From IMG/VR virus record IMGVR_UViG_3300045988_154391: a stretch of DNA of 64,000 nucleotides. One strand, given 5' to 3'. Shown one piece after another: positions 28,598-39,320 of this stretch. How positions within the stretch are numbered: the stretch's first letter is position 1; every line of letters begins with the position of its first letter. Below the pieces are notes generated by a model. It was not told the DNA's origin and ran no database searches. It saw only the letters and a list, made by a program, of their open reading frames with translations. Both the position numbers and the translations under genes were made by a program. The stretch comes from a virus (Duplodnaviria; Heunggongvirae; Uroviricota; Caudoviricetes).

Positions 28598-28978
28598 CTA
28601 CTCCGCGGAACCATACAATCTACGTAACGTGTCGGCGACAGAAGATACAGATATCTCTCCGGTCGCAGCCCCTACGGTAAGGTCTGCCAGTTCAGGTGAA
28701 TCAAATACCTGCACCCCGTTACGGCGTAGAAATAGCAGCGCACTGTTTAGCGCGGTACGCTTATTGGCATCATTGAATATATGCCCTCTCGCTGTAGCCA
28801 CCAGGTAGGTGGCGGAGACTTCGAAAAGGTCGGTGATCTCTTCGTAGGCAACTCTGGCCTGAACTCTCCCGATAATGGCCTCTGCCCTACCCGGATCAGA
28901 CATTCCCGGCAGGCCGCCGTAGCGGCTTATATTCGCATCATGAAGCGCAATAAGTTCTTCCGGTGATATATGCCTCAT
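28598..28978 (-). CDS. doc: Doc toxin (Fic-family kinase)
   Basis: 126-aa protein [39 protein letters not shown] ... matches P1 Doc; start overlaps the phd stop (TAATG). Confidence 0.95.
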
Positions 28979-29199
28979 TATCGGTTAACCAGTTCCTTGT
29001 TGGTGGAGTCCAGGGTGTCAAACAGGGATGCAAATTCAGCATCCAGCGCCGCTTTTTTGTAGGCTTCGAAAGTAGCCTTGCTGACAATTACTGCTGGCTC
29101 ACGGCCTCTGCGGGTGATTTCAACCTCTTCCCCGGCTTCAACATTGTTGAGCACTTCAGAAAGGTTGCCACGCGCGGTACGGAAGTTAATGGATTGCAT
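28978..29199 (-). CDS. phd: Phd antitoxin
   Basis: 73-aa protein [56 protein letters not shown] ... matches P1 Phd. Confidence 0.95.
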
Positions 29200-29216
29200 A
29201 AACACCTCGTGTACTC

Positions 29217-29240
29217 GTTATGTGTACACAATTATAAACT
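29217..29240. promoter_or_regulatory. Candidate phd-doc operator (GTGTAC palindromes)
   Basis: TCGTGTACTCG and TGTGTACACA 20-40 nt upstream of phd. Confidence 0.45.
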
Positions 29241-29271
29241 TCACAGGCATAAAGCACCAGCACTTTGCAGC

Positions 29272-29661
29272 TTAAATAACCGGACAATCATCAAATTCCC
29301 CACTTCGGGCATCATTGATGACATGAGTGATCACACCAAAAACAGCATTACTGCCCGTGTATCCATCGTCATCTACTGGTAACGCCTCTTTCTTCCCGGT
29401 GCTTAAATCCTCCAGGTGCTGGCGCGGATACTTCCTGTATCTCTTTATGCGATATTCACCCTCCATAGCGCACACAAGCAGAGAACCATCAACCGGAGTA
29501 AGCGAGGAATCAACCACCAGCAAAGCACCCTGCAATATTCCCTCACGGTGATGGCTATCAGCTGCCCGCATGAAGTAGGTCGCTGAAGGATGTCTAATTA
29601 TCTGCTGATCAAGAGAAATTCGGCTTTCAACATAATCCGCCGCAGGAGAAGGGAAGCCCAT
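29272..29661 (-). CDS. humD: HumD, UmuD-like S24 peptidase
   Basis: 129-aa LexA/UmuD-like protein; LexA box immediately upstream. Confidence 0.85.
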   Translation of the reverse strand: MGFPSPAADYVESRISLDQQIIRHPSATYFMRAADSHHREGILQGALLVVDSSLTPVDGSLLVCAMEGEYRIKRYRKYPRQHLEDLSTGKKEALPVDDDGYTGSNAVFGVITHVINDARSGEFDDCPVI

Positions 29662-29679
29662 AGCGTTTTACCTCAATGA

Positions 29680-29699
29680 TACTGTTTATTCATACAGTA
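29680..29699. promoter_or_regulatory. LexA (SOS) box upstream of humD
   Basis: TACTGTTTATTCATACAGTA, a CTGT-N8-ACAG palindrome, 19 nt upstream of the humD start. Confidence 0.7.
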
Positions 29700-29784
29700 T
29701 ACATTGAAAAGGCATAGTTTGTGAAAGCGGGGTTTGTAGGCGCGCCACGCTGGGGGCTAATCACATTTCTCCCCCATCTTGCCG

Positions 29785-30036
29785 TTATTTTTTTGGTGCA
29801 TCCTCGTTCTGATACACCGGATCGCTCCCTTTTGGCAACTGGAGGCTTAACTGCCGATAGTGCCGTAACCGTTCCATGAAATAGGTGCGCAGGTTTTCCG
29901 GTTGCTCACGGGCCACCTGCTCTGCAATCACAGGTATATTCAGCCGTTCTTTGTAAGCAACGCCGCTGGCGGCAAGGTCTACGTTCACCTTGTCTCGCTC
30001 TTCCTGGCTTTTAGCTGCTATATTTCGATCTGACAC
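29785..30036 (-). CDS. hot: Hot, homolog of DNA polymerase III theta subunit
   Basis: [43 protein letters not shown] aligns with E. coli HolE; GTG start with GGAGG SD. Confidence 0.85.
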
Positions 30037-30403
30037 AAGAAACCTCCAGGAGTTAGTGGATCAGGCACATGCACAATAACGTTCTCAATGTTAGCCGTTC
30101 AATTCAGACAATCAGAGACTGCACCAGTGTGGTGGCATCAATCCCATTGCGGAACAGCATAGACGAACTGCAAATTCGTGTATTGAATCCGAATCAGGCT
30201 AATAAGCAATTGCGCTTTATTTTGACGCTGAAAAGTGAAACAGAGGGGATAAAGCACAGCGTAAAAGTGTTTTCTGAGGCCATTCTGCTTAATGGGAAGC
30301 TCCGGCATCTGGTAAGGCCAGAACGTCAATATCCTGACGTCCTGGCGCGTGAAAAAGACCTTCTTTCTGAAGTTCAGGATAGGGTGATCGATTTCGTCAA
30401 ATG

Positions 30404-30688
30404 CTATCCCCTGCATTGAGGGCAGGTGTTCCCTTCCGCAAAGTAGGGAAAATTGCTATCAAGTTCATCACACCATCTGCGATGGTCGTAGCACCAAAAC
30501 GCCTCCCACGGTGCACGGAAATACTTCATCCACCAGGACACTCGATCAGGTATATCTGCTGGTGGCAGTTCTTCTGGCAATAATTTGCCTGATAATTCCC
30601 TTTCCGCCCGCGACAGCATTTTTTTGAGGCTCGCGTTCTCTTTTTCAAGCTCATCTACGCGCACCTGTAATTCAGCTTTCGTTGGCAT
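30404..30688 (-). CDS. Hypothetical protein with coiled coil and C-terminal CxxC motif
   Basis: ATG at 30688 with GAGGTGG SD (track ORF extends to 30769). Confidence 0.45.
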   Translation of the reverse strand: MPTKAELQVRVDELEKENASLKKMLSRAERELSGKLLPEELPPADIPDRVSWWMKYFRAPWEAFWCYDHRRWCDELDSNFPYFAEGNTCPQCRG

Positions 30689-31610
30689 GGTCCACCTCAT
30701 GCTTTTCAGCCACCAGCGGCAATAAAGCCCTGGCCATCTTATGAACCAATAGTGCATCAATAATGCCAAGCGTATGCCCCGGCTTAATGTTTAATGCCGC
30801 CTCAAGGTGACACCTTTCCAGGTCACTTTTCTCGGCTTGTTTATGATGATCTGGTGTAATAACGTCGCCCAAAACACGGCTAATTCTTTCTCGTAATTGC
30901 TGGGTGCCAGCACACTTGATCGCTGTATCGTGGAGACGGTTAACCAGTTCGCGATAAACATGCGGCTTAATGCGGATACGTTCACCGGTGACGCCCTTTC
31001 CTGGCGCTGGCACCGAACTATCCGGAATATCCGGATAGTTGCCAGCCTCGTAAGCTACCCACAGCCAGTGCATGAATGTTTCAGTGGACACACAACCACA
31101 GTCCACATCGATTTTCCCGCGTTGCTGTTCCAGCCATTGCCCAAAATCCAACCTGTAAGTCTTACTTTCAAGTTCATCACCATTGAACTCGACTTTCTGC
31201 GACGCTATGAGAGCTGATTCGTATTGTTCGCGAGTGACAACTGACTGGTATTCATCGCTATCAAGGCCACCAATTGGAAGCTCAATCTCACAACAAAAAT
31301 TGCGCCCAAAGAAAGTGTCTTTTTTGTGGTCTGAGCCAAAAGCAAAAGTCGCGCATGGTGCCATTAAATTGACACTGGGTAGGTAACAATAACTCATTCC
31401 ATCAGGCCACCCGCCGCACTTAGGCAGCTCCTTCACTAACAAGTCGATAAACTTCATTTTTTTATCATCTTTGCAAGCCGCCAAAGCCATTTGGGCAAGT
31501 GCCAATACTTCATCTGCCGTATATCCAGCACCGTGACCATACATTTCGATACGGGAAATAATCTCTGATATACGCTCTTCAGTGATTCTGGTCATTTCTT
31601 TTTGCGCCAT
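30672..31610 (-). CDS. Hypothetical protein (312 aa)
   Basis: Long ORF in the co-directional accessory block; no motif recognised. Confidence 0.55.
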   Translation of the reverse strand: MAQKEMTRITEERISEIISRIEMYGHGAGYTADEVLALAQMALAACKDDKKMKFIDLLVKELPKCGGWPDGMSYCYLPSVNLMAPCATFAFGSDHKKDTFFGRNFCCEIELPIGGLDSDEYQSVVTREQYESALIASQKVEFNGDELESKTYRLDFGQWLEQQRGKIDVDCGCVSTETFMHWLWVAYEAGNYPDIPDSSVPAPGKGVTGERIRIKPHVYRELVNRLHDTAIKCAGTQQLRERISRVLGDVITPDHHKQAEKSDLERCHLEAALNIKPGHTLGIIDALLVHKMARALLPLVAEKHEVDHANES

Positions 31611-31966
31611 TTCTTTTCACATTCCTTAGTCCATTTTTCAATGTTCATTTTGGCAATATCAGTCATTCCATCACCTAAGAAATACTTTTTCCGGTACGTC
31701 TTGCACTTAAACCACACTACAACAGCCACCAGCCAGAAAATAAAAGGCCATACGGCAATACCAACTCCAGCCGCGATAAAGCCCAATATCCATAAATGAA
31801 GCTCTCCAACTTCTGTTTCCGGCAATATTCTTAAAGAATTAAACAGCAGGCTGAACGAATGGTCGTATGCATTGGCAGTATAAGACATGCAATCCATATA
31901 ATTAAAGTCATAGCCTGCGGCTGCCGCCCATAATGGGCGGTCAAGAAAATGTTTTAGTGTCATCAT
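31592..31966 (-). CDS. Predicted membrane protein (124 aa)
   Basis: Two hydrophobic segments and a Lys-rich C-terminus. Confidence 0.5.
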   Translation of the reverse strand: MMTLKHFLDRPLWAAAAGYDFNYMDCMSYTANAYDHSFSLLFNSLRILPETEVGELHLWILGFIAAGVGIAVWPFIFWLVAVVVWFKCKTYRKKYFLGDGMTDIAKMNIEKWTKECEKKWRKKK

Positions 31967-31972
31967 ATTAAT

Positions 31973-32266
31973 TTAAGGTTCAGACCAGTTATCTTCAATA
32001 GCAATGCTTAATCTTTGTAGCCATTCTGCTAATTTCAGCATTGCTTCTCTTTCGCTTAAACCACACGGAAAATCATCAAGCGATATTGTTGGCTTGAAGT
32101 TTCCCAAATTATCCATTTCAACGGTCAGATTTTGCTCCAGAACGGTATTTCTTACGCGGCTATTGTGCCGAAGCAAATATACTGAACGTGATTTATTGGT
32201 TTTGTGGTCGAACGTATATTCGGTAAGTATCATCTGACTTCCGCCATGATTATTACCGCGCCACAT
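31973..32266 (-). CDS. Hypothetical protein
   Basis: ORF in the accessory block; start ambiguous. Confidence 0.45.
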   Translation of the reverse strand: MWRGNNHGGSQMILTEYTFDHKTNKSRSVYLLRHNSRVRNTVLEQNLTVEMDNLGNFKPTISLDDFPCGLSEREAMLKLAEWLQRLSIAIEDNWSEP

Positions 32267-32289
32267 AATTACTCCGTGTTAATTGAAAT

Positions 32290-32571
32290 TTAGCTATTAA
32301 TCTTCACTTTTATCGCGTACACCTTTACCGGTTTATCACCGAAGTGTGGATGTGTGATTGTTTTTATTTCATATCCGTTATACGGGACGTCAATTCTGCG
32401 ACTGAAGTCTTCGCGCTTCGGATATCCCTTTGTGATAATCAGGCGGTCATACTCGCGGAACATAATTCGCTTATTCCAGTAGTCATTACACAGGCGATAC
32501 TCTTCCGTTTTCTCTCCGCGAATCATGGCATCGAAGTATTCACCTTTAACGGCAAGTTGCAGGTTAGCCAC
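32290..32571 (-). CDS. Small ASCH/PUA-like protein
   Basis: Motif pattern GEYFDAMIRGEKTEEYR ... YDRLIITKGYP resembles ASCH/DUF3850-type domains. Confidence 0.5.
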   Translation of the reverse strand: MANLQLAVKGEYFDAMIRGEKTEEYRLCNDYWNKRIMFREYDRLIITKGYPKREDFSRRIDVPYNGYEIKTITHPHFGDKPVKVYAIKVKINS

Positions 32572-32851
32572 GACCTTCCTCCTTTGGCTTGTGAATTTGT
32601 ATCGTCATGCCGCTTTGAGTGGTGACTACAACGACAGAACCAGGCTGAAGACTGTTAAGATTGAATGCTTCGTAAAACGAAGCCAAGGCCAGCGCTTTTT
32701 TATTCTTTCGGTTCCACCAACGCCATCCATTGCTACAGGCTACACTGACAATCCACTGTCCACTCCTGTAAGCCATATAAAACCAGATGAGCAAAACCTG
32801 AATGAATGCTATCCAGTCAATAATCGTATATTTCGCGAAGGAGACCATCAA
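32564..32851 (-). CDS. Small membrane protein, paralog A
   Basis: Shares the segment KKALALASFYEAFNLNSLQPGS with the 34449-34772 product (RQKALEAFYDAFELSRIEPGTT). Confidence 0.5.
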   Translation of the reverse strand: MMVSFAKYTIIDWIAFIQVLLIWFYMAYRSGQWIVSVACSNGWRWWNRKNKKALALASFYEAFNLNSLQPGSVVVVTTQSGMTIQIHKPKEEGRG

Positions 32852-33420
32852 TTAACCTCCTGCGGCGGTTCCGGTAGAGGCATCCAGTACAAGGCGTTCC
32901 CTAACCACGATAAAGTGCCGTCGCTCAACTCCACGTATTCCCCTTGTACCTGTCCTGCCATATACTCGCCGTGCTTTGAATAAATTAAAATCCAATCATC
33001 TTGAGCGGGCATTCGCTCACTACAGCTTATCCAACCATCCGGAGTTACCGGATAGTTGCCCGACAGCTCGTTCAACTTGTAAGTTTGGCTTACAGGTTCG
33101 GCTTCCAGTTCTGCAATGCGCTTCTCTGCAGCTTCCAGCTCAACGCGCAGCTTCCCTACCGTTAGCGCAATTTCCTCGTTCTCCTGGTCGCGGCGTTTGA
33201 TGTATTGCTGGTTTCTTTCCCGTTCATCCAGCAGCGCCAGCACGGTTTCTGGTCCGGTCAGAAATTTGAAGGCGTTGAGCGCATCAATATCCACACCGTA
33301 ATCCTTAAGTTCCTGTTCACTTAACAAATCATCATCAACTGGCAACATTAACAGGCGTTCCATTGCCGGAATTGCACGTTCTGCCGCCTCACGCAGTGCC
33401 TGATAGTTAATTTTGGTCAT
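32848..33420 (-). CDS. Ead/Ea22-like protein, paralog 1
   Basis: N-terminal NYQALREAAERAIP motif shared with the 34736-35611 product; central coiled coil (IAELEAE). Confidence 0.6.
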   Translation of the reverse strand: MTKINYQALREAAERAIPAMERLLMLPVDDDLLSEQELKDYGVDIDALNAFKFLTGPETVLALLDERERNQQYIKRRDQENEEIALTVGKLRVELEAAEKRIAELEAEPVSQTYKLNELSGNYPVTPDGWISCSERMPAQDDWILIYSKHGEYMAGQVQGEYVELSDGTLSWLGNALYWMPLPEPPQEVN

Positions 33421-33421
33421 A

Positions 33422-33721
33422 TCACATCCTCCTGAAGCCGTTGCATTTACGTAAAAAATCGCAGATATAGCCCTTCATTTTTTCGTGCCAATCTCGATCA
33501 TTCCCATTGCACCAACCATCAGGTGGAGTCCAGTTTTCTATCAGAGCAGCCATTTTCTTTGCTTTCGCCGGAGTAGCTGTTGCGGTATCGCAGTAATGAC
33601 GAGTGTCAACCAACGTATCCATACCATCGATATCAAGTACGCAAAACCATGTGTGATTCGGCATTTCAACAGATGGTATTTGTTGCCCACGTCGACGTTT
33701 ATCAATAAGACATACAGTCAC
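33422..33721 (-). CDS. Hypothetical Cys/Trp-rich protein (99 aa)
   Basis: ORF tightly packed between two Ead-like paralogs. Confidence 0.45.
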   Translation of the reverse strand: MTVCLIDKRRRGQQIPSVEMPNHTWFCVLDIDGMDTLVDTRHYCDTATATPAKAKKMAALIENWTPPDGWCNGNDRDWHEKMKGYICDFLRKCNGFRRM

Positions 33722-34452
33722 TGGTTGCCTCCTTTGCGAAGCTGGGCAGCAAAGTCAACTAACCACTCAGTCATTTCAACCTTCCCTACCAGGTCTGAAC
33801 CAGGGTGCATACAGCAATCACTCTGCGCCGCTTTGAAATCCTTATACTCATATTCTTGGGCCACCAGATTTTTTGCAGCTTCTATAGCAGCATCCACGCC
33901 CTGCGCCCGCACTTCAGCCAGGAAAGCATCGGTGGCTGGCATATTTCCTGTTGCCTTCATGGCCTCCAAAATAACCAGAACGCCATCTCGCCCAACCACC
34001 TCAGCGATAACCTCAGTGTTGTCGCCAACAACATCGCAGAATGCCTGAACTGCCTTACGAGCCAGCTCATTCTCCACTGCCAGCGCCGTGCGATTACCCT
34101 CCAGCTCTGCAATGCGCTGTTTTGCGGCATCCAGTTCAATCGACAATTTTTCCAACTGCTCTTGATGCTTCTTGTATTCCTGATATGCGTGCCAAGACTG
34201 ACCTTTGCGCACACTATCAGTGATATCAGTAATCTGTTCTGGTGTTAGCGTGGTCAGTGGCTGTGATGGGAAAATAAGCACTTTCCCGGAATCCCAATCA
34301 AAACCAGCGTGAATTGACTGAACCTCAACTGAAGGTGTTGAACCAATGCTGCCAGGCGAATGAACAACGATTGTTACATCCATATCGCGACGATGGCTGT
34401 GGTTGTTGGACAAAATACGATTCACCAACTCAGAAAATTTGGAAAATTTCAT
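33718..34452 (-). CDS. Ead/Ea22-like protein, paralog 2
   Basis: C-terminal ATDAFLAEVRAQGVDAAIEAAKN shared with paralog 3 (ATDAFLSEIRAEARNEGI); coiled coil IAELEGN. Confidence 0.6.
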   Translation of the reverse strand: MKFSKFSELVNRILSNNHSHRRDMDVTIVVHSPGSIGSTPSVEVQSIHAGFDWDSGKVLIFPSQPLTTLTPEQITDITDSVRKGQSWHAYQEYKKHQEQLEKLSIELDAAKQRIAELEGNRTALAVENELARKAVQAFCDVVGDNTEVIAEVVGRDGVLVILEAMKATGNMPATDAFLAEVRAQGVDAAIEAAKNLVAQEYEYKDFKAAQSDCCMHPGSDLVGKVEMTEWLVDFAAQLRKGGNQ

Positions 34453-34772
34453 GCTGATTCCCCTTTCTCTGCTCTCTCCTGTCGGAACATCACTATCATC
34501 AGGTCGCCTTTTGTCGCTATCCTGGCTGTTGTACCTGGTTCAATGCGGCTAAGCTCAAATGCGTCATAGAACGCTTCTAATGCCTTCTGGCGTAGTTCCT
34601 GTTTGCGCCGTTTTTTCCACTGTTTTAGGAAAATGGAACCCAGCCATCGCCATGTGCGGGACATGATGTAAAGCCAACCGAGAAGTGCCAGACCGGTATT
34701 TAGGAGCGTATCGATCGTTATTGTCGTGTCGATATTCACTGGCTGCTTCCTTTGCGAATCTGTTCCGCCCAT
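34449..34772 (-). CDS. Small membrane protein, paralog B
   Basis: Paralog of the 32564-32851 product; one hydrophobic helix. Confidence 0.5.
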   Translation of the reverse strand: MGGTDSQRKQPVNIDTTITIDTLLNTGLALLGWLYIMSRTWRWLGSIFLKQWKKRRKQELRQKALEAFYDAFELSRIEPGTTARIATKGDLMIVMFRQERAEKGESA

Positions 34773-35611
34773 TCTTCAAGGGATTTCTCCGCATATTCAC
34801 CAGACAGGCCATCAATCGGATGCGCTTCATTAGCCAACTCTTCTTTCGCTGACAAAATCATGCGTGTAACGTCGAAAACTTCACGCAAAGACTTATTGAT
34901 AAATCCGTGATTGAACGCAGCAGCAAGACGGCTGGCGGTATAGTTAATCCCCTCGTTGCGTGCTTCCGCACGAATTTCAGACAGGAAAGCATCGGTGGCT
35001 GGGGTTTCGACATTAGGTCGAAGCTCATAATCACAAACTCTTTCAATCCATGGTGATACTCTGTCGCATTTCCTCTTCTTGCGTTCACCGACCTTGGTTG
35101 CCTGCTGAATAATTACCCCCCAGCAAATGCTTTCGACCTCTTCGCTCCATCCATCGCAAGCATCGCCTCTATAGTCGTCAATTGCAGCCTCAGCAGCAGC
35201 GATAGCCTCCTCAGCAGTTTTGTGACACTCGAAACTAAATTCAGAGCCATATGAGAAATACATAGCCCCGGCCTTCAGCGCCGCATTCTCCGCTGCCAGC
35301 GCCGCGAGATTAGTCTCAAGCTCTGCAATTCGACACATAGCATCAATATTTGTGTCCTCCAGGCGCTTAATTTCACCAAGCAGCTCCAGTGCAACCTTTG
35401 GGTTGAACGCGGCAACATAACGAGCGTTGTTCTCTGCATTTTTCTGTCCATCAAAGCCGGTCCATTTGATAACGTCTTCACATCGTTCATCACCGGGCGT
35501 GTGCACCGCATAAGTACCAGTATCCGTCGAAATAAATGCGACCCATTCGTCTGGTGTTGCCTTTTCTGCCGCCTCACGCAGTACCTGATAGTCAATTGTC
35601 ATTCTCGCCAT
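34736..35611 (-). CDS. Ead/Ea22-like protein, paralog 3
   Basis: N-terminal DYQVLREAAEKATP and C-terminal ATDAFLSEIRAEA motifs; coiled coil IAELETN. Confidence 0.6.
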   Translation of the reverse strand: MARMTIDYQVLREAAEKATPDEWVAFISTDTGTYAVHTPGDERCEDVIKWTGFDGQKNAENNARYVAAFNPKVALELLGEIKRLEDTNIDAMCRIAELETNLAALAAENAALKAGAMYFSYGSEFSFECHKTAEEAIAAAEAAIDDYRGDACDGWSEEVESICWGVIIQQATKVGERKKRKCDRVSPWIERVCDYELRPNVETPATDAFLSEIRAEARNEGINYTASRLAAAFNHGFINKSLREVFDVTRMILSAKEELANEAHPIDGLSGEYAEKSLEEWAEQIRKGSSQ

Positions 35612-36243
35612 CCTTCACAGTTGTAATCACTACAGCCTTCAAAATCATATGGGCTGTACTGCCAGGTTATTTTTCCGCAATGCGGACAATTCCAACGCAC
35701 CTTCCCGCTTCGCGACTTCTTTCTTCTGTTTTGCTTTTTCAACCAGTCAGGCATGACCAAACCTGCGCCCTGAACCATTGTTCTGCGGTTAAAGTTATTG
35801 ATATTGAACGTCCGGCGCTTTGCTGCATCAGCAATGGAAAATGGCAACCAAACTATTCCTGGTTCGTTTTTGTTGGCGACGCTAAAGATGGTCGCTTTAC
35901 TGAAGTCATCTGTTGGCAATCCACCGTGTTGAAGCCAGTAAACATCGTTGCCGTTCCAGCTACCTTTTTTGTAGGCCACATACGCAGTGCAATCTGACTC
36001 AATCAGGCTTTCTGTAGGGATGTACTGGCAATCAACGTGCCACACAGCCATTGCATCCACGCTATCAGCGCAAACAGGCTGATCGATATCTCGTCCACAA
36101 TTCCAGGCTTTTTGGGCTGCTTCCAGCGTGTAAACATGAGCGCGATCGATATCAGAACTGTAACCATTGCCGTTATGGCAATGGAATGAGGCGTTATTAC
36201 CCACAGTTTCACGCAAGCACATCATGTAAAAGCGGTTATTCAC
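35599..36243 (-). CDS. Hypothetical protein with C-terminal zinc-ribbon (CPHCG ... C..C)
   Basis: 214-aa ORF in the accessory block. Confidence 0.55.
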   Translation of the reverse strand: MNNRFYMMCLRETVGNNASFHCHNGNGYSSDIDRAHVYTLEAAQKAWNCGRDIDQPVCADSVDAMAVWHVDCQYIPTESLIESDCTAYVAYKKGSWNGNDVYWLQHGGLPTDDFSKATIFSVANKNEPGIVWLPFSIADAAKRRTFNINNFNRRTMVQGAGLVMPDWLKKQNRRKKSRSGKVRWNCPHCGKITWQYSPYDFEGCSDYNCEGWRE

Positions 36244-36451
36244 TGGATGCCTCCCAGCAAATTTGTCTTATATAAGAACTGTTAACGCGCTTTACTTTCC
36301 CGTCGAACTCCAGTTTCTTTAGACGACGCAAAACGTATGCCGTTTTGAGTGTGCGATATTTATCCCTAAGCCAGTTGGTCACGACGTAAGTCATACAGCG
36401 CCCGTGTTCTTCCAACACCCGAACTATTTCTTCGTCGGTTGGCTTGCTCAT
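36236..36451 (-). CDS. Small hypothetical protein (71 aa)
   Basis: Overlapping-stop arrangement within the operon. Confidence 0.45.
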   Translation of the reverse strand: MSKPTDEEIVRVLEEHGRCMTYVVTNWLRDKYRTLKTAYVLRRLKKLEFDGKVKRVNSSYIRQICWEASSE

Positions 36452-36669
36452 TTTGTCGCTCCTTCAGCTTTCTCTACTTTCGCTGCCATGATTTCCAGCT
36501 TTTGTGCTGCCGATGCCGCTAACCTGTGAAATTCATCATCTGTTTCAACTGGAATTGGTACAAACCTGACACCAATTTGAGCAAGGCTATGCGCCATTTC
36601 GAGACTTGCTCTTAACTCTGCTGGGGATGCTTTATTCAGGCCGACTTCCTCACAAATAACTGATTGCAT
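36448..36669 (-). CDS. Small hypothetical protein (73 aa)
   Basis: Overlapping-stop arrangement within the operon. Confidence 0.45.
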   Translation of the reverse strand: MQSVICEEVGLNKASPAELRASLEMAHSLAQIGVRFVPIPVETDDEFHRLAASAAQKLEIMAAKVEKAEGATK

Positions 36670-36678
36670 ACGCTCGCC

Positions 36679-37284
36679 CTACTGAATACGCTCAAACTCG
36701 ATTACCCAAACCCAGGGATTAGCACTCCAGCTTTCTTCGCCGTAGATGGATTCCCACAGGCGCTGGAACGCAACCTTGGCCATTGCGAAATCCCCCTTGG
36801 GAGTAAGGAATGTTCCCGGGTGATCAGGAAGCAAACTTCCAGCAGGCGGAACGCCCTCATCCCTTGCATCGCATTCGCTGATATCGTTCAACCGCTCAAC
36901 GCGCACGTTGGTAATTTCCAGAAGAATGCGCGATGCCCAGCGCGGCATGTGAATTGATGGCGTCCACTTTTCTGATACTGGTTTATTACAAACCTCGACC
37001 GGAACCCGGTGCGTTTGTTCTGTCCAGGAGTTACGCACGCTTGCGCGATAAACCAGCGTTGCGACGTCCGTCGCTTTGCCATGTACCCGGTAGGTTTCGC
37101 GAACCCAAATACGATCGCCCGGTTGACCATATGGACAATGCTTGGCAAGCAACTCTGCGGCCACTGCCCGTCCATAGAATTTTTCTTCAACAATCCTGCG
37201 AGTCTGTGTTTTATTCCCGCCAAGAATTGCCCGGACCATCTCATCGTTAAAAATCATGCCGCGCTCTTTCACTTCGCCTTTCAT
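36679..37284 (-). CDS. ASCH-domain protein (201 aa)
   Basis: Pattern TQTRRIV ... GDRIWVRETY ... HMPRWASRILLEITNVRVERL is typical of ASCH domains. Confidence 0.6.
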   Translation of the reverse strand: MKGEVKERGMIFNDEMVRAILGGNKTQTRRIVEEKFYGRAVAAELLAKHCPYGQPGDRIWVRETYRVHGKATDVATLVYRASVRNSWTEQTHRVPVEVCNKPVSEKWTPSIHMPRWASRILLEITNVRVERLNDISECDARDEGVPPAGSLLPDHPGTFLTPKGDFAMAKVAFQRLWESIYGEESWSANPWVWVIEFERIQ

Positions 37285-37462
37285 GCATCCCCCTTACCCA
37301 TGTGCGACGATGCCGCCAAAAGTGATAGAGAACAGCCAGAAATAGATCGCGGCCATAATGATTTTGAATGCCGTGTTCATATTTTCATCTCCTGTGATTG
37401 ATTGGATACATGCCGCGCCTTGCGGCATGTTTTTATTTTCACTTTCTCTGTTTTAAAAATCA

Positions 37463-37479
37463 ATATTTATTAGAGCAAT
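37463..37479 (-). promoter_or_regulatory. C1 operator at the 3' end of pap
   Basis: ATATTTATTAGAGCAAT, one mismatch; overlaps the pap stop codon. Confidence 0.7.
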
Positions 37480-37985
37480 TATTGTTGATGGAGAAGCGCG
37501 TTTTCATACTCCCTGACCATTAACGTAAGCACGCCGTGCCTCCTGAAAACACGCGCCACTTCAATCTTATCTTCCAGCGCGAACGCGATTTTACTTAGAC
37601 CAATTTTCTTAAGGAGATCAATCTTTGCTGGGCCGTCATTTCTGTCATCGGTGGCAGGACGCATAGATAGCAAAGGCTCAGCCCCGTTTGTTACGTACTT
37701 CCGCAGCCAGGCTCGTGTTTTATCCCTTGCGATCTCACAGCGCCCGGTTACAAACCAGACCGTGTAAACGTTAAATAACTGGCGCACAATATCAATAACT
37801 GGAGTTATGGGAGTATCAGTGTCACAGGCGAGATTAAACTCGTTCCAGTCCTTTGTTAATGCACCTTTACCTGGTGGCGGAAGCAAATGCAGTCTGTCTT
37901 CAGTTGCCTCTGATATTGTTCCATCAATATCAACTATGACGATATACGGACGTTCCTGGTGTGCGTGTTTATTGAAAATACTCAA
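37479..37985 (-). CDS. pap: HAD-superfamily phosphatase (Pap-like)
   Basis: DxDGT motif (IVIVDIDGTISE) near the N-terminus. Confidence 0.7.
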   Translation of the reverse strand: MSIFNKHAHQERPYIVIVDIDGTISEATEDRLHLLPPPGKGALTKDWNEFNLACDTDTPITPVIDIVRQLFNVYTVWFVTGRCEIARDKTRAWLRKYVTNGAEPLLSMRPATDDRNDGPAKIDLLKKIGLSKIAFALEDKIEVARVFRRHGVLTLMVREYENALLHQQ

Positions 37986-38057
37986 ATGCCCTCCTCATTG
38001 GACGAAAAAAATGCTGGTGGGCGCACTCCACCAGCATTAAAAGTGACACTGTAACTG

Positions 38058-39320
38058 TCAGCGAACGTAAATAGTGCCGCCGTTCTCTTTTTCCCATGCA
38101 TCGCTACGTGCATAGCAAACATCGAGAAGTCTTCTTGCCGCTGTTTCCTCTAAACCCAATTCGACAACCAACTGCTCATGACGGCGGGTAACCACATCAA
38201 ACAGGGTATGCAGCCCTTTAGCTGCCAGATCATCAATAAATTCCGGTTCGAACGGCAGCTCTGCCTCTGCCAACATAACCTCTTGCGCCCACTCAACTCG
38301 ACGGACCAGTTCCGGGCGGCGGCTTTCCATCTCTTTACAGATCAATTCATGGAAGAACTCTACCCAACCTTCCGGCTGGAACTCGCGGAAAATGGCCAAC
38401 GGCTGGAAGTTTGGCATCAACCATTCGTTGATCCGGATATCAATGGCATAGCCCATGTCGCAGCAGAACTGATAAGCAAAGTCCAGCTTAGAAACGATAT
38501 AAGGACGCTCGTTATTGAACTCTTTAGGCGATGAGATCCCATAAGCCAGGAGGCGCGGGAAGAAGGAGATTTGCCCTAACGTCGGATGAAGTTTGCTTGC
38601 AGGGAAACGGCGCTCAGTAATGCCATACATTTCCTTCTTGAGCGTCGCAAATTTGGCATTCTCATTAACCAGCGCGGTAACCTCTGCTTTTTTATTAGCA
38701 AATGCCACGCGCGCTTCGCTTGCATCTTTAATAGTTTTTTTGAGCTGTTGGTTAAGGTCGGCGACCTGCTTACGCAGTTCCTGTCGCTCGCTTTTAGCTT
38801 TGTTATAGCGTTTCTCAAGGTTAAAAGGATCAAGTTTCATGATCTCTTTATATTGAGATTTTAGCGTTGAAATCTGTGAGTTCCGCAGTTCAACCATCGC
38901 GGTCATTTCATTGAGTTTTGTTTCCAGCTCAATGCTTATACGTTCGGCATTATCAGCACGCTGGTTGGCGTCATGCGTCGCATCGTCGATCGCGTCCTGT
39001 TGCTGGCGTTTCAAATGTTCAATTTGCAGCTGAAGCTCTTCAATTTCTTTACCCTTCAGACCGAGATCCAACTGCATATTTTCAGCTGCATCGACCAGGG
39101 AGTTATGGCTATCAGCTTCTGCGTTATAAACATCAATAAGCTGTGCGTGAAGCATCTCCGCTGACTGAACCGCATTATCAAAAAAACGTGCTGTGAGGTC
39201 ATCACAACTAACGCGGCGTTGCGCGGCCCGGATGTTCTGGATAATGGCCGGGATACCGGCATTCAGGACATCAGGGATAGATACATTTTCGATTGATTGG
39301 TTTTGTGCTGAAGTGCTCAT
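38058..39320 (-). CDS. Coiled-coil protein (420 aa)
   Basis: Long heptad-rich central region. Confidence 0.6.
   Translation of the reverse strand: MSTSAQNQSIENVSIPDVLNAGIPAIIQNIRAAQRRVSCDDLTARFFDNAVQSAEMLHAQLIDVYNAEADSHNSLVDAAENMQLDLGLKGKEIEELQLQIEHLKRQQQDAIDDATHDANQRADNAERISIELETKLNEMTAMVELRNSQISTLKSQYKEIMKLDPFNLEKRYNKAKSERQELRKQVADLNQQLKKTIKDASEARVAFANKKAEVTALVNENAKFATLKKEMYGITERRFPASKLHPTLGQISFFPRLLAYGISSPKEFNNERPYIVSKLDFAYQFCCDMGYAIDIRINEWLMPNFQPLAIFREFQPEGWVEFFHELICKEMESRRPELVRRVEWAQEVMLAEAELPFEPEFIDDLAAKGLHTLFDVVTRRHEQLVVELGLEETAARRLLDVCYARSDAWEKENGGTIYVR

Follow-up and report, generated by a model that had tools for sequence, protein, structure and literature searches.

The DNA examined here is a 64,000-nucleotide stretch (the window; IMG/VR virus record IMGVR_UViG_3300045988_154391) of a P1-like phage-plasmid, in which the interval between the genes hot and pap is occupied by an array of small genes. 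This interval is best explained, with a probability of about 0.7, as the cargo of the early accessory operon of the P1-family phage-plasmids (pmgT in P1, 'hea' in P7), made up of lambdoid early-left cassettes. The feature is real, clearly mosaic and ordinary for the P1 family, and it has already been described in kind: known are the annotation of a 'hea' operon in P7, variable region 8 of the P1-like phage-plasmids (PMC9603915) and the mosaic architecture of Ea22 (PMC10834534). What is added here are the limits of the operon and its inferred control by the C1 repressor, its explicit equivalence to the lambdoid phages' exo-xis segment, quantitative support for recombination at gene junctions and linker-coding islands, and the recognition of P1 pmgT and pmgU as the scar of a deletion.

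Gene layout and operon head of the hot-pap interval

All credible open reading frames (ORFs) from hot to pap lie on the minus strand, and successive genes either overlap by 4-19 nt, most often by 4 or 8 nt, or are separated by gaps of at most 23 nt (Table 1). The first-pass annotation had placed twelve co-directional, tightly packed genes at 30404-36243, and these ORFs are all found there on the minus strand (g1 to g12). The limits proposed for the block were too narrow, since the unit continues past 36243 to about 37479 with four further coupled minus-strand ORFs upstream (g13, g14, g15 and a small ORF for a 28-aa membrane peptide), giving 16 in total. This leader ORF is kept in P1, P7 and RCS47; it is unannotated in P1 and is named 'membrane protein' in SJ46.

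At the head of the array, overlapping the promoter, lies a C1 operator (ATTGCTCTAATAAATAT) with one mismatch to the 17-bp asymmetric consensus ATTGCTCTAATAAATTT. The window holds 16 matches to this consensus at three or fewer mismatches, against 0.39 expected by chance. The site at the head of the array is identical to that of P7 and RCS47 and 1 nt off that of P1; it is annotated in P1 as OpmgT (former Op88), with the promoters P1pmgT and P2pmgT, and in P7 as 'Op(hea); predicted to regulate expression of hea operon'. What is said here of Op88 follows these GenBank annotations, and the promoter positions were carried over from the P1 annotation through a 96%-identical alignment (A1). An identity of ~96% with P1, P7, RCS47 and pMTY1887 extends over about 250 bp, which take in the 3' end of pap, the operator and promoter hexamers, a perfect hairpin, the small ORF and the initial codons of g15. 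The hairpin is invariant in five P1-like genomes, these four included, and might stop antisense transcription, or else stabilise or attenuate the leader RNA. Elsewhere in the window, a perfect C1 site (53778-53794) overlaps a second site on the opposite strand (53767-53783), as in the bivalent c1 operator of P1.

A consensus scan of the minus strand of the block returned no other promoter-like site, and no convincing terminator was found on that strand. Given these two results and the gene overlaps, the stretch from 37479 to 30404 is probably a single C1-repressed early operon of about 7 kb that ends just before hot. Transcription would start at the sigma-70 promoters overlapped by the operator and run as one unit to 30404; C1 would silence it in the plasmid prophage, and the operon would come on right after infection or at induction.

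Such predicted repressor control points to expression early in the lytic cycle or at induction more than to lysogenic conversion. It would be very unlikely, in fact, that these are lysogenic-conversion (moron) genes, expressed from the resident prophage and conferring a host benefit or superinfection exclusion, for instance through membrane proteins. Three or four of the products are indeed small membrane proteins, the first-pass annotation had proposed superinfection exclusion or host fitness as functions, and the GC content of 0.40 across g3-g5 suggests a foreign origin; however, the C1 operator overlaps the sole promoter-like signals of the coding strand, translational coupling ties the genes into one unit that lacks the flanking promoter and terminator of a typical moron, and the same genes are found in the repressed pL operon of lambdoid phages.

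Table 1. Genes, control elements, DNA islands and landmarks of the hot-pap region (positions in the window)
Feature	Position	Strand	Description
C1 repressor operator	37463-37479	-	equivalent of P1 Op88/OpmgT and P7 Op(hea); overlaps pap stop codon
Two overlapping sigma-70 promoters	37435-37478	-	equivalents of P2pmgT (TTGCTC-17-TAAAAC) and P1pmgT (TTGATT-17-GAAAAT)
Leader hairpin	37408-37430		perfect, 10 bp, GC-rich; terminator-like on + strand only, then TTTTATTTTC
Leader small ORF	37294-37380	-	28-aa single-pass membrane peptide; AGGAG ribosome-binding site; KD 2.1
g15	36679-37284	-	201 aa; homolog of P1 PmgT N-terminal 232 aa; phrog_874
g14	36448-36669	-	73 aa; DUF1382 (Pfam E 1.2e-28), lambda Orf63 homolog
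g13	36236-36451	-	71 aa; phrog_9799; possible winged-helix protein, winged helix-turn-helix matches sub-threshold
g12	35599-36243	-	214 aa; P7 Upf87.6, phrog_2457; conserved, of orphan fold, with a four-Cys zinc ribbon at the C-terminus
g11	34736-35611	-	291 aa; Ead/Ea22-like; probable start 35602 (288 aa)
g10	34449-34772	-	DUF4752; probable GTG start 34739 (PGAP; 96 aa)
g9	33718-34452	-	244 aa; HkaH-like member of the Ead/Ea22-HkaH combinatorial family
g8	33422-33721	-	99 aa; DUF7739, Pfam E 1.7e-21
g7	32848-33420	-	190 aa; fusion of an Ea22-type N-terminal part, with coiled coil, to a C-terminal DUF551 domain
g6	32564-32851	-	95 aa; DUF4752, single-pass membrane protein
g5	32290-32571	-	93 aa; ASCH-like (PGAP name), phrog_625
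g4	31973-32266	-	97 aa; phrog_1258
g3	31592-31966	-	124 aa; membrane protein, phrog_2638; KD 2.38
g2	30672-31610	-	312 aa; mosaic protein; C-terminal 111 aa correspond to P1 PmgU
g1	30404-30688	-	94 aa; coiled coil and Cys-rich tail; phrog_3797; last gene of the operon
Island, Ead N-terminal motif	33372-33412; 35557-35597		41 nt, 88%; breakpoints 33380, 33412/13, 35556-35596
Island, coiled-coil RIAELE/ALAAEN core	34068-34139; 33104-33143; 35284-35332		40-49 nt, 83-86%; breakpoints 33131-33148, 34068, 34088, 35274
Island, PATDAFL linker	33904-33939; 34967-35002		36 nt, 89%; breakpoints 33893-33904, 33939, 35001-35009
Gene-junction island	33715-33744; 34733-34762; 36237-36254		18-27 nt, 78-89%; encodes ..LRKGGxQ-stop; CCAGTGA stop/start overlaps next start codon; breakpoints 33718 (5 loci), 34736 (3 loci), 36254 (7 loci)
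pmgS homolog	38058-39320		landmark
pap	37479-37985		HAD_PNKP
hot	29785-30036		DNA_pol3_theta
humD	29272-29661		landmark
doc	28598-28978		landmark
phd			landmark

Lambdoid kinship and modular Ead-like proteins

The origin of the cassettes is seen in the P22-like prophage CUS-3, which is 99.0% identical at the DNA level to the window over 1.64 kb (32300-33939), a segment that holds nearly all of g5, then g6, g7, g8 and the 3' end of g9. In CUS-3 they stand last in the pL operon, preceded by N, ral, cIII, kil, erf and hkaJ/hkaH, and adjoin attR. The same order of Ead, DUF4752 and ASCH genes is found in ST104, PAS61 and TL-2011a, beside xis/int or at an equivalent distal position, and a Stx2c phage carries g12 followed by two Ead-like genes. 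Moreover, lambda Orf63 is 73% identical to g14 over 59 aa (E 2e-30), the N-terminal half of lambda Ea22 is 53% identical to that of g7, and the whole g7 protein is 100% identical to its CUS-3 counterpart. The kinship with lambdoid Ea regions noticed in the first reading of the sequence is thus borne out by the CUS-3 identity and the shared gene order. These matches and the Orf63 and Ea22 homologies make the block an enlarged, P1-borne equivalent of the exo-xis/ea region of lambdoid phages, moved from CI/pL to predicted C1/Op88 control.

In lambda and the Stx phages, the exo-xis region (orf60a, orf63, orf61, orf73, ea22, ea8.5) resembles the block in its repressor-controlled early expression (predicted here), in an Orf63 homolog placed upstream of Ea22-type genes and in consisting of non-essential genes, as judged by CRISPR interference (CRISPRi) on the lambda genes and on the P1 remnants. 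Unlike that region, the block resides on a plasmid prophage between pap and hot, under P1 C1 and not under CI, pL and N, and it carries three Ead-family genes in place of one, together with DUF4752, DUF7739 and ASCH-like proteins and g12. Its position thus sets it apart from a true exo-xis region, although it works like one. The 'ea' genes of P22, HK620, CUS-3 and ST104 (ead, hkaG, hkaH and their neighbours) are the same cassettes, as the 99% DNA identity to CUS-3 and the gene order of ST104 indicate, although those are integrating lambdoid or P22-like phages in which the genes end the pL operon by att/int.

The three Ead-like genes, g7, g9 and g11, had been described in the first-pass annotation as paralogs that share N- and/or C-terminal segments around different coiled-coil cores. 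Paralogy holds at the level of the family, all three matching phrog_368 (E 2.7e-42, 1.9e-75 and 3.4e-65), and the short shared segments are confirmed; the cores are not wholly different, a RIAELE island being common to them. In the Pfam search, Ead_Ea22 (PF13935; gathering score 27 bits) was matched by g7 (104.3 bits) and g11 (70.1 bits) and not by g9, and g7 also matched DUF551 at its C-terminal end. Pairwise BLASTP of the three returned short shared segments only: 11 of 15 residues identical at the N-terminus of g7 and g11, 28% identity over 89 aa at the C-terminus of g9 and g11 (PATDAFLxExRA included), and 33% over 51 aa in the coiled coil of g7 and g9. These segments are also seen as DNA islands of 27-49 nt with 83-89% identity, lying in otherwise unrelated sequence, which is far beyond chance. 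The architecture of the Ea22 family, in which a constant short N-terminal motif is followed by a coiled coil at the centre and by a C-terminal domain that varies and may be DUF551 (PMC10834534), is found here, the coiled-coil island being present in all three genes; the C-terminal domain is DUF551 in g7 and a PATDAFL module in g9 and g11. The N-terminal module of g9 differs (phrog_6026), the coiled-coil island, the PATDAFL linker and the LRKGG end being retained, while g11 joins the Ead N-terminus, the coiled coil, a middle module and the PATDAFL C-terminal module.

Module shuffling, which the first reading had suspected, is supported by recombinant alleles and by the clustering of breakpoints. 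The homolog search with g11 yielded 4678 family members, and PGAP tables place the identical protein of 288 aa (WP_000151166) on no fewer than 1000 contigs. In an alignment of family representatives with g9 and g11 (A3), P0211 combines the N-terminus of g9 with the middle and C-terminus of g11, P0207 and P0208 join the N-terminus and middle of g11 to the C-terminus of g9, and P0230 and P0238 insert the middle of g9 between the N- and C-termini of g11; the linkers ALAAEN, PATDAFLxE and LRKGG are invariant throughout. Homology breakpoints were taken as the ends of high-scoring segment pairs (HSPs; at least 150 nt and at least 90% identity) between window 29600-38000 and 21 P1-like and lambdoid loci. 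Clusters of breakpoints fall within 15 nt of a gene junction or island in 24 of 42 cases, against 16.6% expected (binomial p = 3e-9). Within the genes of the Ead part, islands hold 11 of 19 clusters, where 15% would be expected (p = 2e-5). The repertoire is thus assembled through recombination at the junctions between genes and at short conserved islands that code for linkers; whole genes are swapped in this way, and so are the N-terminal, middle and C-terminal parts of Ead-like proteins. The islands recall the 'boundary sequences' of lambdoid phages, in that short conserved junctions coincide with homology breakpoints, and the CUS-3 record annotates one such 'boundary sequence' elsewhere in that prophage; unlike those, several islands here are intragenic, so that protein domains are exchanged too, and the exchange crosses phage families (Punavirus and lambdoid).

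A further island, a palindromic 28-nt sequence (AACTATCCGGAATATCCGGATAGTTGCC), is present at 31016-31043 and 33033-33060, with 86% identity between the copies, and encodes a 'GNYPxxPD' linker in g2 and g7. A closer relationship of these two proteins was dismissed, nothing beyond this linker being shared (protein E 0.064; DNA 28 nt, 86%). Homology breaks at 33052-33060, in the g7 copy, in seven loci; this was seen after the test and was left out of the statistics. A breakpoint at 31015 and the endpoint at 31053 of the P1 deletion described below adjoin the g2 copy.

The two DUF4752 genes that stand beside the Ead-like genes had been taken for a pair of paralogous small membrane proteins. Both match DUF4752 (PF15944; cut-off 27 bits), g6 with 117.3 bits (E 3e-34) and g10 with 143.3 bits (E 2.4e-42), as well as phrog_667, and at 28% identity (E 6e-12) they are distant paralogs, not a recent duplication; the hydropathy scan showed a clear transmembrane segment in g6 only. 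An obligate Ead-DUF4752 pair was considered and rejected, the linkage being frequent and not obligate: among 79 IMG/VR loci with a g10-type DUF4752, the upstream gene belongs to the Ead/HkaH family in 44; in 17 it codes for an 82-aa protein, in 14 for a 139-aa helix-turn-helix (HTH)/Cys protein, and in 4 it is another gene. The downstream gene is g9-type in 44. On the structural side, an AlphaFold2 (AF2) monomer model of g11 built from the shallow alignment A3 was unusable (predicted local distance difference test, pLDDT, 45). On EC23 plasmid p2, PGAP splits the identical g7 sequence into an Ead/Ea22 pseudogene and a 54-aa ORF (L005 4206-4517 and 3945-4109); in the window and in CUS-3, g7 is intact as a single 190-aa ORF, and the split is probably an annotation artefact arising from gene mosaicism.

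The locus in the P1 family and the deletion in P1

The locus has been published as 'variable region 8' of the P1-like phage-plasmids (PMC9603915), and the block agrees with that description, lying in the pmgT-to-humD interval with a gene content that differs among otherwise conserved P1-like genomes. The genes had been reported as unrecognised from P1; they are indeed absent from canonical P1, where pmgT-pmgU-pmgV-upfMNO stand in their place, but the region itself was already known through the 'hea' operon of P7 and variable region 8. The operons of P7 ('hea') and P1 (pmgT-upfO) share with the window the position between pap and hot, the C1 operator, the promoter, the leader and the first codons. 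P7 also carries an Ead-like gene (Upf88.3) and the g12 ortholog Upf87.6 at 98.5% DNA identity, and RCS47, SJ46, pMTY1887 and hundreds of plasmids hold other permutations of the cassettes, whereas canonical P1 retains only a fused remnant.

The nature of this remnant is visible at position 85183/85184 of NC_005856, where the P1 matches to window 36709-36960 (the 3' part of g15) abut those to 31053-30707 (the 3' part of g2). PmgT is g15-type up to '...ESWSANPWV' and then continues in out-of-frame g2 sequence (its last ~77 aa), and PmgU is what remains, in frame, of the C-terminal part of g2. Microhomology at the junction amounts to no more than about 2 nt; judging from this junction, P1 therefore lacks the block through an illegitimate deletion of ~5.7 kb that fused the first gene of the operon to the penultimate one. 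Only the three canonical P1 records and 5 of 47 matching plasmids (PLSDB) contain, unbroken, the sequence of an 80-nt probe that spans the junction, so the block-bearing state is the norm and P1 the exception. The laboratory P1 genome is thus a deletion derivative at this locus, with pmgT and pmgU as scars and not functional units, and in natural P1-like phage-plasmids 5-8 kb of arrayed lambdoid early accessory genes are the usual condition. This effectively refutes the idea that the genes serve morphogenesis, which the names pmgT and pmgU imply and which the annotations of P1 and RCS47 convey by labelling the homologs 'putative morphogenetic': besides being products of a deletion fusion, pmgT and pmgU are non-essential by CRISPRi (PMC10695390), their homologs lie in the non-structural early region of lambdoid phages, and no protein of the block matches a structural-protein family above threshold.

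Parts of the block are shared by 565 phage and 657 plasmid records, none of which holds 80% or more of the query in one place. Among complete Escherichia coli genomes, parts occur in 3544 of 5426, mostly in chromosomal prophages, and the near-whole arrangement in one only, on plasmid p2 of EC23, where 97% of the query is covered with an identity of 99.7%, against 83% covered in the place that ranks second; EC23 p2 is 99.9% identical to the window over 29600-36967. This combination of cassettes is therefore rare, while two or three Ead/Ea22-like genes are annotated at the locus in most P1-like plasmids.

Other P1-like elements carry at this position a PAPS-reductase-family protein, a dATP/dGTP pyrophosphohydrolase-domain protein or an adenine methyltransferase (loci L017 8719-9591, L018 2547-3233 and JL22 (H32)), or else an XF1762-family protein. 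Cargo of this kind is typical of anti-restriction or host-takeover functions, and it hints at counter-defence or host-takeover roles of the hot spot. In the position of g14 (DUF1382), one locus has a small gene labelled RecT (L008 7139-7360).

It is thus possible, although somewhat unlikely, that the block is cargo for counter-defence or competition between phages, with fast-turnover cassettes and modular coiled-coil Ead-like adaptors bearing swappable heads that would disable host immunity or competing phages and not adjust the choice of the phage itself between lysis and lysogeny. This is a serious rival, yet an account compatible with a lambdoid early accessory operon. Predicted early, repressor-controlled expression would suit such a role, as would the presence of two to three Ead-like paralogs with combinatorial heads per element, the place of the cassettes just downstream of abc1/abc2 and ral in P22-like phages, and their extreme turnover among otherwise conserved P1-like genomes (PMC9603915). 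However, no protein of the block matches a characterised anti-defence protein, an accessory-gene screen in the literature makes no mention of Ead or Ea22, and the sole experimental phenotypes of Ea22 and Orf63 concern lysogenisation, survival and the timing of lysis. The PADLOC search gave no significant match, the only one being a coiled-coil-type match of g9 (E 0.0036). A more specific version, in which the Ead/Ea22-HkaH proteins are oligomeric coiled-coil adaptors whose swappable heads address defence or rival-phage targets, and the islands are kept as recombination joints between P1-like plasmids and lambdoid prophages, is doubtful. If it were true, the two to three paralogs per operon, often flanking a DUF4752 gene, would form an arms-race repertoire and not a set of tuners of lysis and lysogeny.

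Predicted roles of the cargo and its surroundings

From the biochemical and genetic perspective, Ea22 of lambda and Phi24B is an early, non-essential, tetrameric coiled-coil protein that favours lysogeny and host survival (PMC7093339, PMC10834534), and its C-terminal domain varies between phages, one variant being DUF551 (PMC10834534). Orf63 (DUF1382) is a dimer with pro-lytic effects (PMC10869804). By CRISPRi, pmgT/U/V, upfN/O and hot of P1, as well as ea22, orf61, orf63, orf60a and ea8.5 of lambda, are non-essential (PMC10695390). In the reading preferred here, that of an early accessory operon of lambdoid origin, the cassettes are those of the distal end of the repressor-controlled early-left operon of lambdoid and P22-like phages (exo-xis/ea), and the cargo comprises an Orf63 homolog, three Ead/Ea22-HkaH members, two DUF4752 proteins, ASCH-like proteins, a DUF7739 protein and an orphan-fold zinc-ribbon protein. 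By analogy with the genetics of lambda and Phi24B, the products may be non-essential modulators of early development and host physiology, the Ea22-type proteins pushing towards lysogeny and host survival and the Orf63-type towards lysis.

Several points weigh against this reading. The lambda phenotypes are modest and come from a different regulatory circuit, and P1 takes its decision between lysis and lysogeny through C1, Coi, Lxc and Ant, so that the targets may differ. The block lacks orf60a and orf61, no homolog of which was found in it by BLASTP, and a clear ea8.5 counterpart, and most of the 16 products (g1-g4, g8, g12, g13 and the C-terminal modules of g9 and g11) are without a characterised homolog. 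Furthermore, the predicted regulation relies on sequence identity to annotated P1 and P7 sites, the 21 loci of the breakpoint comparison were hand-picked, and BLAST HSPs tend to end where conservation ends, so that part of the enrichment at the islands could reflect purifying selection on the linkers and not recombination hot spots.

None of this is surprising to specialists, and no new mechanism is shown. The locus nevertheless offers a simple system for the long-unexplained exo-xis/Ea genes, with one operator, one operon and an easily engineered plasmid, and the 99% DNA identity attests to recent gene flow between two unrelated lineages of temperate phages at definable short joints.

As regards the remaining products, the ASCH/PUA-like and zinc-ribbon proteins of the first-pass annotation fared differently. 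The zinc ribbon is supported, g12 having four invariant Cys at its C-terminal end. The ASCH assignment is below the Pfam threshold and comes from PGAP naming: g5 scores 14.6 bits (E 0.056) against ASCH (PF04266; gathering score 21.2 bits), g15 has no match to PF04266 or to any other Pfam family, and PGAP names near-identical g5 proteins and a 241-aa allele of g15 ASCH-domain proteins. For g12, 133 homologs were found, from Enterobacterales to Acinetobacter, without a Pfam domain; its AF2 model is of high confidence (pLDDT 92; predicted template modelling score, pTM, 0.83) and had no annotated match in BFVD. Searches of PDB sequences with g11, g12 and g15 returned no match, and NCBIfam and Rfam searches of the block gave nothing significant. 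The candidacy of g1 as a homolog of lambda Ea8.5 was dropped (22% identity, E 0.004; nothing relevant in a PDB sequence search). The GC content is 0.40-0.42 across g3-g5 (window 31250-32500) against 0.47-0.50 elsewhere in the block, which suggests a different donor for the g3-g5 cassettes.

Downstream of the operon, hot is 84% identical to P1 hot, against 96-98% for the flanks, and the region upstream of it is not homologous to P1; no exact match to the -22 box of the P1 late promoter LPhot was found on the minus strand of 29001-38500. The spacing between hot and humD is only 123 nt (29662-29784), and lxr, a gene that P1 has between these two and on the opposite strand, is missing here. Finally, a 116-aa ORF on the plus strand (30069-30419, phrog_2594), without a Pfam or PADLOC match, converges on the operon and overlaps the 3' end of g1 by 16 nt. 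It is absent from P1 and annotated in RCS47, pMTY1887 and EC23 p2, and could either be a gene under regulation of its own or separate the operon from hot as a transcriptional buffer.

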